IMG/VR virus record: IMGVR_UViG_2531839662_000010
Coordinates: 1-5,460 of that record
DNA length: 5,460 nt
Strand: one strand, 5' to 3'
Source: a virus
Taxonomy: Duplodnaviria > Heunggongvirae > Uroviricota > Caudoviricetes
Shown: piece after piece, positions 1-5,460 of the stretch
Layout: the number at the start of each line of letters is the position of its first letter
Position numbering within the stretch: position 1 is the stretch's first letter
Program-made: the position numbers and the translations under genes
Notes under the pieces: generated by a model
Seen by the model: only the letters and a program-made list of their open reading frames with translations
Told to the model about the DNA's origin: nothing
The model's database searches: none

Positions 1-600
1 TCTTTACCACTTTCTGTGTTGATTGGTTATGAAAAGAACGCTCGCACACACTCCGTGGAGCAGGTAGATCAGATTGTTGCCAGCATACAGGAGTACGGAT
101 GGACTAATCCGATCCTGATAGACGAGAACAACGTTGTAATTGCTGGTCATGGTCGAATTGCTGCGGCCACTCAGTTGGGGATGGATGACGTTCCCTGCAT
201 TGTTCTGGAAGGGCTAACGGAGAATCAGAAGAAGGCATATCGTCTGGCCGACAACCGTATTCCGCTGAATGCTGGTTGGGATGAAGAGTTGTTAAGCGCG
301 GAACTTGCAGATCTTGCGGCCGATGATTTTGCTCTGGACTCAATTGGTTTTACTCAGCGCGAACTGGATAACTTATTGAGTGCGGCGGTCTACGATGACA
401 CAGAGGGTATGGATATCCCATTTGAGAAGGATGAGGCCAAATCAGGCGTAAAAGTTCAGTACCTGTCATTTGGAGGTCATAAAATCCCGGCAACGGATGA
501 GGAAGCGGATCGTTTTGACTGCGCGGTGTCTCGTTATGTTGATGATAATGGCAGCTATATCGGATTTGTATCCGCATTGCTGGCTGGGGAGGTGTGCTGA
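1..600 (+). CDS. ParB/Srx-fold (ParB N-terminal domain) nuclease-like protein, 5'-partial; frame is open to window start, true start probably just upstream
   Basis: ORF 16..600 has no stop upstream in frame and no SD before GTG16/TTG19. Translation shows ParB-N hallmarks: NARTHS near the N-terminus, GHGR box (nt 145-156), then LADNRIPLNAGWDEELLSAELADL, a pattern typical of phage ParB-like nuclease proteins. Stop TGA 598-600. Confidence 0.75.
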   Translation, partial: SLPLSVLIGYEKNARTHSVEQVDQIVASIQEYGWTNPILIDENNVVIAGHGRIAAATQLGMDDVPCIVLEGLTENQKKAYRLADNRIPLNAGWDEELLSAELADLAADDFALDSIGFTQRELDNLLSAAVYDDTEGMDIPFEKDEAKSGVKVQYLSFGGHKIPATDEEADRFDCAVSRYVDDNGSYIGFVSALLAGEVC

Positions 601-1973
601 TGCTTCACCTGAATTACGACATAACGCACCTACGCGGCGCGGAATATAACCCGCGTTTTATCGGTGAGGATGATCTTGCGAGGCTGGCGGAAAGCGTCAG
701 GGAGCTGGGGCTTGTGAAGCCATTGATAGTGCGCGGCGATTTGCTGGTGGCGGGACACCAAAGGACGAAGGCGCTACGTAAGTTGGGAATAACGCGTGCT
801 GCGGTGTATGTGTTGCCCTGTGAAACGACGGTATACGACGAAGTACGGTTTAACCAACTGCATAACGGAACGGATTTTGATAGCGGAGATGAGCGTTGCA
901 GGGTGTCCGGTCTGGAAGATAAGCATGGTTTTGTTCAGGTATCGGCAAGCCAGATCTCAGGCAATATGCGCGCGAAAATGGCATATGTTCGAAAGAACAT
1001 AGCGGAACTGGTTATCAAGTATGGTCCGTGGGGTGGTTGTGTTGCTACTCAGTCTGGTGAGGTTATTCATTGTGCTCAGTATGCATTAGCAGCGAAGATG
1101 ACGCGCACACCGCTAACGGTGTTTGTGATCCCTGATGTTGAGAAGGAAAAATACCAAAGTTATCTGAATAAAACTTATGGTGTATTTGAGTATTCTCATC
1201 TGGAGAAAACAACATACATCCAGACGTATGCGCAGCTTATGCGGTTGCGTAATGGTGGCAGCCTGAAATCAAATCTGTATGAGTCGTTGATCCTCCCGAT
1301 CATTGCCAAGACGCCAAGAGGAATTGATTTTGGTTCGGGGCAGGGAGACTACGCGCGAATGCTCAGGGCAAAGGGATATAACCTGCATGATCTCGAGCTT
1401 TTCCGCCGTAAGGGCGCTGGAAACACTCTGGATAGGACCGCAACAAACCGGATGATTGATACGCTGGTGGATGACTTAAAAACGCGAGGGCGTTACGACT
1501 ACGTGATTTGCGATAGCGTTTTGAACTCGGTCGATAGTGTCGAGGCTGAATGGTCCGTTCTGACGGTTCTGAAAGGCCTGTGTAAAGCTGGTGGGTCAAT
1601 ATTCTTTTCTGGTCGTAGCCGTGGAGAGCTGGAAACAGTCCTGAAGCAAACACAGGCGGCGAGTTCCAAAAGCCGGCTTTATTTTATTGATCATAACGGT
1701 TTTACCGCGTTGTACCGGAAGGGGCACTGGTTTTACCAGAAGTTTCACTCTGATGAGGAAGTGAAGCAGTTGTGTCGTGTACATGGTTTCAGGATTAAGC
1801 GGTCAATATTCAACTGTAAGAGCTGGTATTTGCACGTCATTAACGATGATTCCCTTAGTTGGGCGAGTCTGGAGAAAGCTGTTCGTTTTGAGTTTGAGTT
1901 GCCGTTGCCTGGTGGTTCAACAATCGGACGATCTGATGATGTGCTGGCGGCTTTCCGGCCGTTGATTAAGTAG
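600..1973 (+). CDS. Fusion protein: N-terminal ParB/Srx-like domain + C-terminal Class I SAM-dependent methyltransferase-like domain
   Basis: ATG at 600 overlaps the upstream TGA (TGATG) with GGAGG at 588-592; the track's GTG 594 has no usable SD spacing. N-terminus YNPRF...VAGHQRTKALRKLG is ParB-like. C-terminal half has Rossmann MTase motif I IDFGSGQGD (nt 1323-1349), motif II YDYVICDSVLN (nt 1494-1526) and motif III-like LKGLCKAGGSIFF. No (D/N/S)PP(Y/F/W) motif seen. Confidence 0.7.
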   Translation: MLHLNYDITHLRGAEYNPRFIGEDDLARLAESVRELGLVKPLIVRGDLLVAGHQRTKALRKLGITRAAVYVLPCETTVYDEVRFNQLHNGTDFDSGDERCRVSGLEDKHGFVQVSASQISGNMRAKMAYVRKNIAELVIKYGPWGGCVATQSGEVIHCAQYALAAKMTRTPLTVFVIPDVEKEKYQSYLNKTYGVFEYSHLEKTTYIQTYAQLMRLRNGGSLKSNLYESLILPIIAKTPRGIDFGSGQGDYARMLRAKGYNLHDLELFRRKGAGNTLDRTATNRMIDTLVDDLKTRGRYDYVICDSVLNSVDSVEAEWSVLTVLKGLCKAGGSIFFSGRSRGELETVLKQTQAASSKSRLYFIDHNGFTALYRKGHWFYQKFHSDEEVKQLCRVHGFRIKRSIFNCKSWYLHVINDDSLSWASLEKAVRFEFELPLPGGSTIGRSDDVLAAFRPLIK

Positions 1974-2411: not shown

Positions 2412-3403
2412 TTATGTGGATGAAATGTGGATGCCTCCTTTTAACGGATTAAGTGAAATTGCATCCTGGAGGAAATCAGGAGCGAGGTGTGCATAGGTCA
2501 TAGTTTGCTGGATCGTGGCGTGCCCCATAATTCGCTGGAGCGTAAGTATATTTCCTCCATTAATCATAAAGTGAGCTGCAAAGGTATGGCGTAGAACATG
2601 TACTGCCTGCCCTTTTGGTAGATCAGGCTTAACACTGCGAAGCACCTTGCGATATTCCTCATAATTGACGTCAAACAGAAGGCCGGATTTCTTTGTTTTG
2701 ATCTCGCTAACAACTTCATCAGAGACAGGAATAATTCGAACTTTTCCGTTTTTAGTTTTGTTAAACGTCACGCGGTTATTGATGATGTGTTCCGCGCGCA
2801 GATTTTTCGCTTCTCCCCATCTCGCACCAGTACTGAGACAAAGTAGCGTAATCCGCCGGGCATCACCGCTTACTGCATCCAGTAATTTGGCAATTTCTTC
2901 CGTGGTGAGATACGTCATTTCGGGTGATTTTCGTTTCAAAGAGGGGAGGGCGCGGAGCGGATTTTCTCCGTGAAATTCCCCGGCATTTGCCAGGAGTGTA
3001 AACATTCCTCCGAGATCCGACTCATCACGCCGAACAGTAGACTCTTTTACTCCCAAAGATTAAACGGGAGCTTCGATTAAGCGGCCATGAAACGAGCATT
3101 AATCTGGCTAACCCTTGGATCATTCATTTCTTTGATGATTTTTTTCAACCTGGTTAGAACGCCGTTAGCATATGGCTTATTGCGTCCACCCAATTCCCAC
3201 CATAACGGAAGCAGATCTGAGAGATGACGTTGCTCTGTTGGCTTTTCAAGCCATTCCTTATCGTGCATGTGGCTGAGAACATAACGCTCAAAGGCCACTG
3301 CATCTGCCTTTTTCTTAAAAATCCGCTGAATCCGACGTCCACTTCGGCCACGCGGTCTAACATCCACTTTATACCGTCCACCATCGAGTGCTTTAATTGC
3401 CAT
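2412..3403 (-). pseudogene. int: P2-type tyrosine integrase, apparently inactivated (N- and C-terminal halves in different frames, separated by stop codons)
   Basis: N-terminal part (ORF 3077..3436; probable start ATG 3401-3403 with GGAGGG SD, giving MAIKALDGGRYKVD) resembles the P2 Int N-terminus. C-terminal part (2412..3056, starting at a TTG) carries the catalytic motifs ARWGEA, HVLRHTFA and the tyrosine in MTYAHL. Frame 1 stops at 3077-3079 and frame 2 has a stop at 3060-3062; no single indel joins them. Confidence 0.6.
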
Positions 3404-3469
3404 TGGCAAGCCCTCCGGTGAAACGAGGAAAGACATTTCCAGTTTGTAAAACGTAAGAATAATAAAGGG

Positions 3470-3772
3470 TTAACCAATTTTCCTTTCGGATGGGGGTAAA
3501 TCCGTTGGTTCTTGCCCATAGTGTGCGAGAGCCGGAGCTATCTGCCCGGATTCAGGCGCAATTTTTCCAGTCATAAACCACAACGCATATTTCTCAAATC
3601 TGGGGTTGTTTAGTATTTGCTCAATTACTTCAGCATTAGGGATAGTTTTACCGCTTTCATATCTCCACAGAGCATCACGGTTTAAACCAAGCATTTTTGC
3701 TGTATCCGGGAGGCTAGTAAGTCTCTCGCTTTCACGCATGATTTTTATGCGCTCTCCAATAGTCATACGCAT
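3470..3772 (-). CDS. C: P2 C-type immunity repressor
   Basis: About 100 aa from ATG 3770-3772 with GGAG SD (the track starts at a TTG 15 nt further upstream). Contains WFMTGKIAPESGQIAPALAHYGQ, which closely matches the C-terminal half of phage P2 repressor C as recalled. Sits upstream of int on the same strand and divergent from cox. Confidence 0.8.
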   Translation of the reverse strand: MRMTIGERIKIMRESERLTSLPDTAKMLGLNRDALWRYESGKTIPNAEVIEQILNNPRFEKYALWFMTGKIAPESGQIAPALAHYGQEPTDLPPSERKIG

Positions 3773-3867
3773 GTTGCAATTCTCCAACGTCTGTATTAAT
3801 GTTTATACAAATGAGTTTGATTTGGGGCATCCGTCGCAAGAAATACCCCAAACAGGGAGATTATCAC
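3773..3867. promoter_or_regulatory. Divergent promoter/operator region of the immunity switch (Pc leftward, Pe rightward)
   Basis: 95-bp AT-rich spacer between divergent C and cox starts. Contains a 7-bp inverted repeat TTTGGGG (3821-3827) / CCCCAAA (3846-3852) and TATTAAT / TTTATAC -10-like hexamers. Exact -35/-10 boxes could not be assigned by eye. Confidence 0.45.
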
Positions 3868-4194
3868 ATGAATGAAGAACTATTGAGGGCATTGTTTAAG
3901 ATCCCAGACCCCATCACCGTTGATGAGTTTTCCCGCCGCACAGGTAAGACCGAATCAGCCGTAAGAAAGTTGGTAGAGCGTCGACTCATCCCTCTAACTA
4001 CTGAGCGCGAGGTTTTAGGCGAGGAAGGGAGTTCGCGCCGTCTTCTCATCCTTTGGAATGAGTGGCTCGAAATGGTCTATGACGCAACGAGACAGCTTCC
4101 TCCTGAGCGTAAAGATTGGCGCAACCACTGGCTTAAGAAAGCCAAGAAGCTGGCGGAAGATTTGGGATTAGGCTTTCTTAATTTTGCTGCATGA
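3868..4194 (+). CDS. cox: Cox-like excisionase/transcriptional regulator (108 aa)
   Basis: ATG 3868 with GGAG SD (3855-3858). First gene rightward of the repressor, divergent from it. GKTESAVRKLVERRLIPL resembles the P2 Cox DNA-binding region as recalled. The track's upstream start at 3799 would overlap the operator region and was not used. Confidence 0.6.
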   Translation: MNEELLRALFKIPDPITVDEFSRRTGKTESAVRKLVERRLIPLTTEREVLGEEGSSRRLLILWNEWLEMVYDATRQLPPERKDWRNHWLKKAKKLAEDLGLGFLNFAA

Positions 4195-4212: not shown

Positions 4213-4554
4213 ATGAAACAGCAACGTAATTCACGCTTTCGTAATGGTGCTGAACGCCACGCTAACCGTTTCGCTACCAGTGCATCACGCAGCAACATCC
4301 GCTACAGCCTGAGCGAAACACACGCAACGCCGGATGGCTACCCAGTAAAACAAATCGGCGAGCACGCCTGGTTGATTGAGAAAGCTGGAATCGTGGTCCA
4401 CAAATGCCCACACAATCCGTTTACCGGAAACCGCATTTTTGCACTAAGCAGCGGCGACAATCAGTTCGGACAGGATTTCACATTGTACGAAGCACTTCGT
4501 ACAGTTGATCGTCTGCTTCGCGGACAAAGTTTTATTAAACAGGCTGATTTATAA
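4213..4554 (+). CDS. Hypothetical early-operon protein (113 aa) with strongly basic N-terminus
   Basis: ATG 4213 with GGGAG SD (4200-4204), 18 nt after the cox stop. N-terminal 30 residues are Arg/Asn/Ser-rich. Function not recognised. Confidence 0.5.
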   Translation: MKQQRNSRFRNGAERHANRFATSASRSNIRYSLSETHATPDGYPVKQIGEHAWLIEKAGIVVHKCPHNPFTGNRIFALSSGDNQFGQDFTLYEALRTVDRLLRGQSFIKQADL

Positions 4555-4564
4555 CAGGTGCTTT

Positions 4565-4843
4565 ATGACCAAAGAGCATGCACAAGGTGTATTTATCCGT
4601 TTTATTGATTTTCGCGGTGAACTGTTATTACGCGCATCGGCTATTGATGCTGTAGTTCCGGCAGAAAAAGATGTGGCCACTTACCTTTATCTGAACGGCA
4701 CGCGATTGTTTGTGGAACTTCCGTACCAGACCGTACGCGAAATCATTAACGAAGCTGAAAAGGCACGTCAGGTTAATGGCGATGAACCATATATCGAAAT
4801 TATCTGCATGGATTCAGAAGCTGAAATTCAGAAAGCAGATTAA
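4565..4843 (+). CDS. Hypothetical early-operon protein (92 aa)
   Basis: ATG 4565 is 10 nt after the previous stop, with AGGTG upstream. The track's longer version from 4505 would overlap the preceding gene by 50 nt, so the downstream start is preferred. Acidic C-terminus. Confidence 0.5.
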   Translation: MTKEHAQGVFIRFIDFRGELLLRASAIDAVVPAEKDVATYLYLNGTRLFVELPYQTVREIINEAEKARQVNGDEPYIEIICMDSEAEIQKAD

Positions 4844-4854
4844 AGGGCGTTGCG

Positions 4855-5097
4855 ATGGGCAAAGAATATAAAACTCTCATTAACAAAGCACTTGAGCGTT
4901 TTTATTTTCGCTTAAGTGCATCAGGCGTTCATGCTGAACGTGCAGCCCGTGACTCATTGACCAGGGCAATCCGGAGTCTGTATGACGTGGCTTTTTACGC
5001 TGATGATCTGGATGCACTTAACGAACTTTCCGAGCTGATCTGTGCCGCAGAATGCGGGGAACATATTGAACCGTATAAGCTGGGGAATATCGCATGA
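4855..5097 (+). CDS. Hypothetical early-operon protein (80 aa)
   Basis: ATG 4855 is 11 nt after the previous stop, with AAGGG upstream. Predicted helical. Function not recognised. Confidence 0.45.
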   Translation: MGKEYKTLINKALERFYFRLSASGVHAERAARDSLTRAIRSLYDVAFYADDLDALNELSELICAAECGEHIEPYKLGNIA

Positions 5098-5207
5098 GTA
5101 TATTTATCTCATGGCTTGTTCTGATTATTTCGGTGGCCTGTGCCATTGGGATTATGCGAATTATTAATTCAGTAAAAAAGATTGAACGCTTTTTTACTGG
5201 TGAATAA
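5094..5207 (+). CDS. Small hydrophobic peptide (37 aa) with one predicted transmembrane helix; not in the supplied ORF track
   Basis: ATG 5094 overlaps the upstream TGA as ATGA. Translation MSIFISWLVLIISVACAIGIMRIINSVKKIERFFTGE: a roughly 19-residue hydrophobic core followed by a basic tail. Stop TAA 5205-5207. Confidence 0.35.
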   Translation: MSIFISWLVLIISVACAIGIMRIINSVKKIERFFTGE

Positions 5208-5300
5208 CGATACAAATAAAACATCAAATTAAATAAGAAAACGTGAAAACCATCCGTATTAACGGAGGTATTCGCACACGCAAATAACGGAGATACAAAA

Positions 5301-5460
5301 ATGCACGCAAAAGAAGAAGGTATCATCAGAGCACTGAAAGAAATTTCAAAGATGGAAAGCGAAGTAGCGAAAAAAGCCGTGGCCAATGCTCACATGGACG
5401 TCGCAATCCACACAATGATAGCCGCAAAAGTCACGGCAGAAGCTGCCAAAATCATCGAAG
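5301..5460 (+). CDS. Hypothetical protein, 3'-partial (runs off window end), Ala/Lys-rich helical N-terminus
   Basis: ATG 5301 with GGAGA SD (5289-5293, 7-nt spacer) after a 93-bp AT-rich spacer. Open to the window end: MHAKEEGIIRALKEISKMESEVAKKAVANAHMDVAIHTMIAAKVTAEAAKIIE. Confidence 0.5.
   Translation, partial: MHAKEEGIIRALKEISKMESEVAKKAVANAHMDVAIHTMIAAKVTAEAAKIIE

Follow-up and report, generated by a model that had tools for sequence, protein, structure and literature searches.

A P2-like lysis-lysogeny switch, apparently unaltered, beside an integrase gene interrupted in a single draft contig

Homoimmunity conferred by the prophage repressor is textbook P2 biology. The immunity classes of P2-like phages reportedly run from I to X in the work of Karlsson (2006) and Nilsson (2011), with WPhi and P2 Hy dis among the examples. 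Ten immunity classes have been described among P2-like coliphages (PMC3448106), and a cell in which the C repressor is expressed is immune to phages of its own immunity class, the N-terminal, DNA-recognition half of C being the variable half (PMC2995052). The P2 record annotates Pe, Pc, O1 and O2 for this switch. Phage 186 offers a related arrangement in its CI/Apl switch, where promoters face each other and the Int and Cox/Apl families are related to those considered here, but its CI is a larger, unrelated repressor of the SOS-linked type (PMC3448106). On a published hypothesis, prophages can also lose mobility and keep immunity: mutation of the recombinase would ground a prophage that still gives immunity (Ramisetty & Sudhakari 2019; PMC6379469).

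The locus described here has the P2 gene order, int–C–spacer–cox–early operon. An earlier note on this DNA had seen an intact repressor and cox gene next to a broken integrase, and had suggested a possible homoimmunity function, in effect phage exclusion; the suggestion implies that the immunity module was kept while the prophage decayed. We analysed a window of 5,460 bp, which is the entire contig AFAB02000066.1 of draft assembly GCA_000194535.2. Its first part, positions 1–2322, matched at 99.3–99.5% identity E. coli plasmids of ∼48 kb, a family to which the plasmid of ATCC 25922 belongs. Yersinia phage vB_YpM_41 and other isolated myoviruses carry sequence of this part too, and the plasmid part is therefore a phage-plasmid. 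Three of its genes are in the window, all on the plus strand: a ParB-N/Srx-like gene at 1–600, its 5′ end cut by the contig end (Pfam ParB_N; phrog_620, E 2e-70; 99.3–99.5% identity to the ∼48-kb plasmids and vB_YpM_41), a gene at 594–1973 combining ParB-N and methyltransferase domains (Pfam ParB_N and Methyltransf_23; phrog_5475), and a minor-tail-protein gene at 1990–2328 (phrog_1924 'minor tail protein', E 4.8e-46, profile positions 2–110 of 237), which the prophage cuts from 239 to 112 aa.

From ∼2305 onwards, the window matches at 97% identity the left end of a P2-like prophage that adjoins pheL in many E. coli chromosomes. Beyond int, C and cox, this part holds further ORFs of the early operon on the plus strand: a DUF4761 ORF (4213–4554, Pfam), a 92-aa ORF (4565–4843), a DUF4754 ORF (4855–5097, Pfam), a 37-aa ORF (5094–5207) and a fifth ORF (5301–5460) that runs off the contig end. 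In length, the four complete ORFs agree with those of intact relatives, and the early region (4213–5460) is 92–93% identical to P88-like phages. Profile libraries other than Pfam and PHROG were also searched; Rfam at E ≤ 0.1 gave zero matches, and the matches from NCBIfam and PADLOC were all of generic HTH or methyltransferase type.

We consider it probable that this is a lysis-lysogeny switch in unaltered form, belonging to a P2-like (Peduoviridae) prophage common in E. coli. The repressor gene (minus strand, 3772–3470) encodes 100 aa from an ATG preceded by GGAG 9 nt upstream, or 105 aa if an upstream TTG at 3787 is used. The product is a full-length homolog of P2 C, with 53% identity throughout, and matches PDB 2L49/2XCJ at E 4.8e-25 (residues 2–100 against 2–99) and phrog_147 at E 9e-32. 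The intact repressor with its Shine-Dalgarno sequence and conserved C-terminal half was thus as the earlier note had described it. In alignment, the C-terminal half is near-invariant (residues 53–87, with a block at 64–84), a feature it shares with P2 C (WFMT..IAPESGQIAPALAH), while the N-terminal half is variable and bears an XRE-type HTH (Pfam HTH_31/HTH_3 at residues 5–55). The gene sits between int and cox, with transcription directed away from cox.

The exact C protein was found in 13,278 indexed blocks and is among the commonest E. coli prophage proteins. In 9 of the 10 long contexts listed, the int beside it encodes 329 aa; in the remaining one it is cut by IS66. The 791-bp stretch from the start edge of int to the cox stop codon (3404–4194) occurred in 125 of 5,426 complete E. 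coli genomes, at ≥95% identity in 75 of them. The same stretch gave no match of ≥85% among 50,697 phage records, and the nearest phage C proteins, at 63% identity, are those of Klebsiella phages. As a prophage system it is ordinary and already known.

Immunity specificity is one respect in which the locus departs from P2, the N-terminal HTH half of C and the spacer being unrelated in sequence to their P2 counterparts. Fifteen relatives were scored: 14 that share this immunity type, and a heteroimmune E. coli copy, P13-6, which represents a type found in 51 complete E. coli genomes. The C protein was identical in all 14 same-immunity relatives. P13-6 was virtually identical in int, in the C-terminal half of C and at the cox start, with sharp divergence between 3584 and 3843; the immunity determinant is therefore the HTH half of C together with the operator/promoter region. 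The C/operator region is a classic imm-region mosaic, like other heteroimmune P2-like switches in having sharp boundaries, and the P13-6 type has swapped only the N-terminal half of C and the operator. That the N-terminal half varies agrees with what is reported for C (PMC2995052).

The facing gene, first of the early operon, is an ORF of 108 aa (plus strand, 3868–4194) with GGGAGA upstream. Its product matched P2 Cox in PDB 4LHF at E 1.7e-4 and, by pairwise BLASTP, at 28% identity and E 3e-9; its Pfam Phage_Cox score of 24.9 bits falls under the 27.5 gathering score, and NCBIfam gave no match for it. RefSeq labels some near-identical proteins 'Cox family DNA-binding protein'. The sequence thus points to a distant homolog of P2 Cox, of the same fold family but longer (108 aa here vs 91 aa in P2). 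The placing of cox and of the shared 95-bp control region within 3470–4194 was exact in the earlier note. The Cox protein does carry a private K75R change (A>G at 4091), and this exact protein is on record in AFAB02000066.1 only.

The spacer between C and cox (3773–3867) is 95 bp, against 114 bp in P2 from C start to cox start, and was identical in 13 of the 14 same-immunity relatives. Putative promoter elements can be placed in it by comparison with P2. A −35-like hexamer, TTGCAA (3774–3779, plus strand), lies 2 nt from the C start codon, at the place equivalent to the annotated Pe −35 of P2, where the hexamer likewise abuts the C start codon; TTGCA/G is kept at this position across three immunity types. 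The predicted Pe −10, TAATGT at 3797–3802, is weak. A strict sigma-70 scan of the spacer called no promoter. The sole outcome of a relaxed scan was an extended −10, TGtGATAAT (minus strand, 3868–3860), which overlaps the cox start codon; we treat it as a candidate Pc. This element falls within the stretch next to cox that is conserved from one immunity type to another.

The operator arrangement of P2 was not apparent in the spacer. The operator of P2 C-type repressors is made up of non-palindromic direct repeats, 8 bp long in P2, on either side of the Pe −10; our search of the spacer for a P2-style operator gave no direct repeat of 7/8 or better; a weak pair of decamers (at 3793 and 3804, 7/10 match, 11 bp apart) was spotted by eye. 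Instead, a repeat search found a conserved inverted repeat, TTTGGGGCAT-N12-ATACCCCAAA (3821–3852, minus strand). Three immunity types retain its GGGG/CCCC core, and since these types differ in their C recognition helices, the repeat is probably not the C operator. Folded as RNA in the C sense it reached −16.2 kcal/mol with a z of −3.3, against a z of −0.5 in the cox sense, and our best guess is a hairpin in the leader of the Pc transcript. Covariation in this repeat, tried with RNAalifold on three sequences, was uninformative, the sample being too small and the arms shifted. Because the spacer yielded neither a P2-style operator nor a consensus promoter, the regulatory details rest on analogy.

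By that analogy with P2, C would be made from the leftward promoter Pc and would bind an operator where the spacer is variable, shutting off the rightward early promoter Pe. With Pe off, cox and the early operon would be silent and superinfecting phages of the same class blocked. Cox, as the first product of Pe, would repress Pc and aid Int in excision; for a member of the Cox/Apl family, Cox-box direct repeats would be expected at Pc and in attP. The suggestion that C expression excludes homoimmune phages holds up to the point that expressed C gives same-class immunity (PMC2995052). Read as in P2, such immunity would be a generic by-product of lysogeny and not a distinct exclusion function.

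The integrase gene (minus strand, 3403–2412) encodes a P2-type tyrosine integrase and, as the earlier note had seen, is interrupted as deposited. Alignment to a 97% relative and to a 99.9% relative, the contig L003, showed one inserted T at each of two positions, 3060 and 3077. On the coding strand, the one at 3077 makes TAA of the Tyr110 codon TAT, leaving a 109-aa N-terminal fragment, with the catalytic part in a 214-aa ORF in a third frame; across the two frames, the fragments retain both Pfam domains, Int_N (arm-binding) and Phage_integrase (catalytic). Without the two extra T's the gene encodes 329 aa, none of which differs from the L003 Int. That contig comes from a different sequencing run, shares the plasmid–prophage junction, has an intact 329-aa Int, and is 99.9% identical to the window over 4,282 bp, where, the two indels aside, they differ by two substitutions. 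Both insertions are private to the one draft contig. The 214-aa Int fragment and a 73-aa one are on record in this contig only, among 153 billion indexed gene positions, and two IMG/VR relatives with matching local sequence have a single T at each of the two sites. Nor does the lesion persist across the lineage: the int frame was 329 aa in 14 of the 15 scored relatives and 321 aa in the other, which is cut by IS66. A programmed frameshift was ruled out, as relatives have one continuous ORF and the first insertion makes an immediate TAA.

Whether these insertions are in the DNA or only in the deposited consensus can be argued from their context. Both occur in GAT^AA, 17 bp apart and outside any homopolymer, a pairing that a read error, systematic or local, appears to explain better than would mutations arising independently. 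On the other side, two A>G substitutions are likewise private to this copy and raise the plausibility of real indels: the K75R change in cox, and one at 2678 that is synonymous in int, both absent from all scorable relatives (15 per site, in differing sets). In addition, the assembly is not generally error-prone, since the 2,345-bp phage-plasmid flank of the contig was 100% identical to three independent contigs. Overall we lean towards a consensus error of the draft contig, and regard a very young private mutation as somewhat less probable. Error or young mutation alike, the break is not an evolutionarily retained state.

The junction between the two parts (attL, 2305–2330) places the crossover inside GAAGG at 2314–2318. 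The empty plasmid site reads …AAACGCTCAGAAGGgGCGcTAAGG, or GTACAAACGCTCAGAAGGgGCGcTAAGG; the ATCC 25922 plasmid has there an uninterrupted coding sequence for the 239-aa minor tail protein. From the pheL-side attL and the attR of plasmid pCREC455-3 we deduced the attP core as ACAAAAAACGCGCCCGAAGG|TGCGTTGTAAAACCC. The plasmid target resembles this core, and it is therefore a look-alike secondary attachment site, at which the prophage's own Int would have inserted the prophage into the tail gene of the 48-kb phage-plasmid; the attR of this prophage, if complete, would read …ACAAAAAACGCGCCCGAAGGGGCGCTAAGGGCTGG. Unlike that of P2, the primary attB here adjoins pheL. As in P2, the Int arm repeats and the P′ arm overlap the 3′ end of int: direct ATGTGGA repeats at 2414–2420 and 2425–2431, 11 bp apart and containing the motif TGTGGA, are likely P2-type Int arm sites by their agreement with the consensus tgTGGaCa (PMC3448106). 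Just beyond the int stop codon, within the P′ arm, is a perfect 13-bp inverted repeat (2327–2372) whose RNA folds had energies of −22.2 and −20.4 kcal/mol on the two strands (z −4.1 and −4.3); a strict terminator scan did not call it.

We found the identical junction in contigs of four other runs (SRR10586189, SRR10586184, SRR10947396 and SRR9913908). An exact-match scan for the junction found none in IMG/VR, JGI metagenomes or GTDB representative genomes. Other copies are also plasmid-borne. A complete copy of the same-immunity phage lies inside pCREC455-3, a P1-like plasmid of 129 kb, and a further plasmid-borne match is in a 272-kb Salmonella plasmid. This P2-like phage thus takes phage-plasmids as targets through secondary att sites in them, which is a modest point about the way temperate elements nest in and disable each other.

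Five contigs with plasmid sequence only (L005–L007, L010 and L012) end within 2–3 bp of the att-like site. We considered a physical genome end there and set it aside as a selection effect of looking up the exact 112-aa product: contig ends cluster at the site because only contigs cut there give that partial protein.

That the junction might itself be an assembly chimera of a plasmid and a chromosomal prophage has in its favor that the contig is a short draft one and that no complete E. coli genome of the collection has the two halves adjoining. We rejected it as extremely improbable on the strength of the independent contigs and of att-site logic: the four other runs give the same junction, the halves share only ∼6 bp (GAAGG) at the join, too short to mislead an assembler, and resemblance of the target to the attP core is as expected for Int-mediated integration at a secondary site. 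A left-end remnant, in which int, C, cox and a few early genes survive and the remainder of the prophage is deleted, would suit a contig that stops at 5460 within an ORF. From window position 4282 on, the sister contig L003 continues in unrelated sequence, which we take to resemble an IS end, and if it is an IS, the lineage does suffer insertions. But E. coli matches mostly stop aligning at 5457, 3 bases short of the contig end, as is typical where an assembly breaks because a second P2-like prophage contains the same repeat; phages of this immunity also exist as complete copies of ∼34 kb, one of them on a plasmid. We judge a remnant decidedly unlikely.

Two further readings concern the int lesion. 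If it is real, recent and neutral, the prophage would have lost excision only lately and be complete in other respects, with the immunity of an ordinary lysogen. The private substitutions of this copy and the cleanness of the rest of the contig speak for such a lesion, while the clustering of the insertions in their shared GAT^AA context and the want of a second record with the lesion speak against it, and we hold it to be possible, though doubtful. The proposal that the prophage is grounded goes further: the frameshifts would be real, excision lost, and the C–cox switch kept for homoimmunity that benefits the host. The concept is an established one (PMC6379469), and a recombinase lesion beside an intact repressor is what this locus has in common with grounded or cryptic prophages. 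As deposited, int is broken next to an unchanged C and spacer, and of the four private changes none touches C, all being in int or cox. That a gene of 303 bp has no change, however, is the chance expectation. The lesion here is unique to one contig, and int is intact in the sister copy that shares the junction; with just two substitutions besides the two indels in ∼2 kb, there has been no time for the repressor to be 'retained' by selection. Independent mutation is an unlikely source of two +1 insertions that lie so close together and have the same non-homopolymer context. Within the window there is also no decay of lytic genes beside the conserved repressor, all four complete early ORFs being intact, and the switch is in the state in which it occurs beside intact integrases. 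An immunity module kept through prophage decay is therefore unsupported, and we rate selective retention as very unlikely. The preferred reading is still an unaltered switch of a common P2-like lysogen.

As a defence finding the locus carries small weight, since homoimmunity is textbook and protection by excision-defective prophages is already published. It also serves as a caution against taking a frameshift for evidence of prophage domestication when it stands in a short draft contig. Were the int frameshift real, the prophage would be locked in the tail gene of the phage-plasmid, and the plasmid would stably carry, and could transfer, P2-type immunity together with P2 accessory genes. We think this unlikely; if true, one temperate phage would be nested and fixed within another, in a composite that recurs in several isolates. 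The plasmid-borne copies may in any case interest those who study phage-plasmids.

A secondary attachment site holds the P2-like prophage, within the phrog_1924 minor-tail-protein gene of a ~48-kb phage-plasmid (window 1990–2330; 5990–6709 in L002), and the insertion left that gene, 239 aa long when uninterrupted, with 112 aa. The plasmid-prophage junction is shared with contigs of four other sequencing runs (L003, L008, L009 and L011); it was found in none of the complete E. coli genomes, IMG/VR contigs, JGI metagenomes or GTDB representatives. The sister contig L003, which combines this junction with an intact integrase gene (int), stops matching the window within DUF4761 (window 4282 onward) and continues into TGAACCGCCCCGGGTTTCCTGGAGAGT (L003 6426–6451). 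We take this sequence to resemble an IS3-family terminal repeat; if so, the L003 copy would have suffered an IS insertion. On the phage-plasmid side, window 16–1973 holds two neighboring ParB-N/Srx-domain genes, of which the second also encodes a fused methyltransferase domain; PADLOC returned nothing beyond a generic type II methyltransferase match. At the other end, alignment of most related prophages stops at 5457, three bases short of the contig end (5460), which suggests that the contig broke at a mosaic boundary or repeat that a second P2-like prophage of the same genome has in common with it.

The immunity region is a sharp mosaic, as seen in comparing window 3584–3843 with 1681–1939 of the related locus L026. 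A variant present in 51 complete E. coli genomes is identical to the window in int, in the C repressor's C-terminal half and in cox; its C helix-turn-helix half and operator differ. Overall identity is 84%, and the two C proteins are 72% identical. The spacer between C and cox contains an inverted repeat, TTTGGGGCAT-N12-ATACCCCAAA (window 3821–3852), whose GGGG/CCCC core is kept in three immunity types. It gives a good RNA fold only in the C sense (z −3.3, versus −0.5 in the cox sense), and may form a leader hairpin of the transcript from Pc, the inferred leftward promoter of C.

Further repeats lie around the end of int. A pair of ATGTGGA direct repeats, 11 bp apart (2414–2431), overlaps the int stop codon and agrees with the P2-type Int arm-site consensus, and just downstream of int is a 13-bp perfect inverted repeat (2327–2372; z about −4 on either strand). 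At 4091 and 2678 the window carries private A>G substitutions, the first changing Cox residue 75 (K75R) and the second synonymous in int; neither was found in the scorable relatives (n = 15 per site), and no other record carries the window's exact Cox protein.

Copies of this prophage are also known from other plasmids. A full same-immunity P2-like prophage of ~34 kb occupies 1–34400 of locus L027 (NZ_CP183151.1, pCREC455-3), within a P1-like 129-kb plasmid; its right end carries hok, a TM2-domain gene and com/DNA-methyltransferase genes, with attR at about 34,370–34,390. A further copy is on a 272-kb Salmonella plasmid (NZ_CP110658.1). This phage seems to have landed on plasmids repeatedly. 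In relatives of the window's P2-like phage, partition genes (ParM/StbA-like, "plasmid stability B") directly follow the gpA replication gene (14121–15155 in L001; about 2080–3380 in L014–L021). Such genes are unusual in comparison with P2 itself, a hint that the lineage may have a plasmid-like phase.
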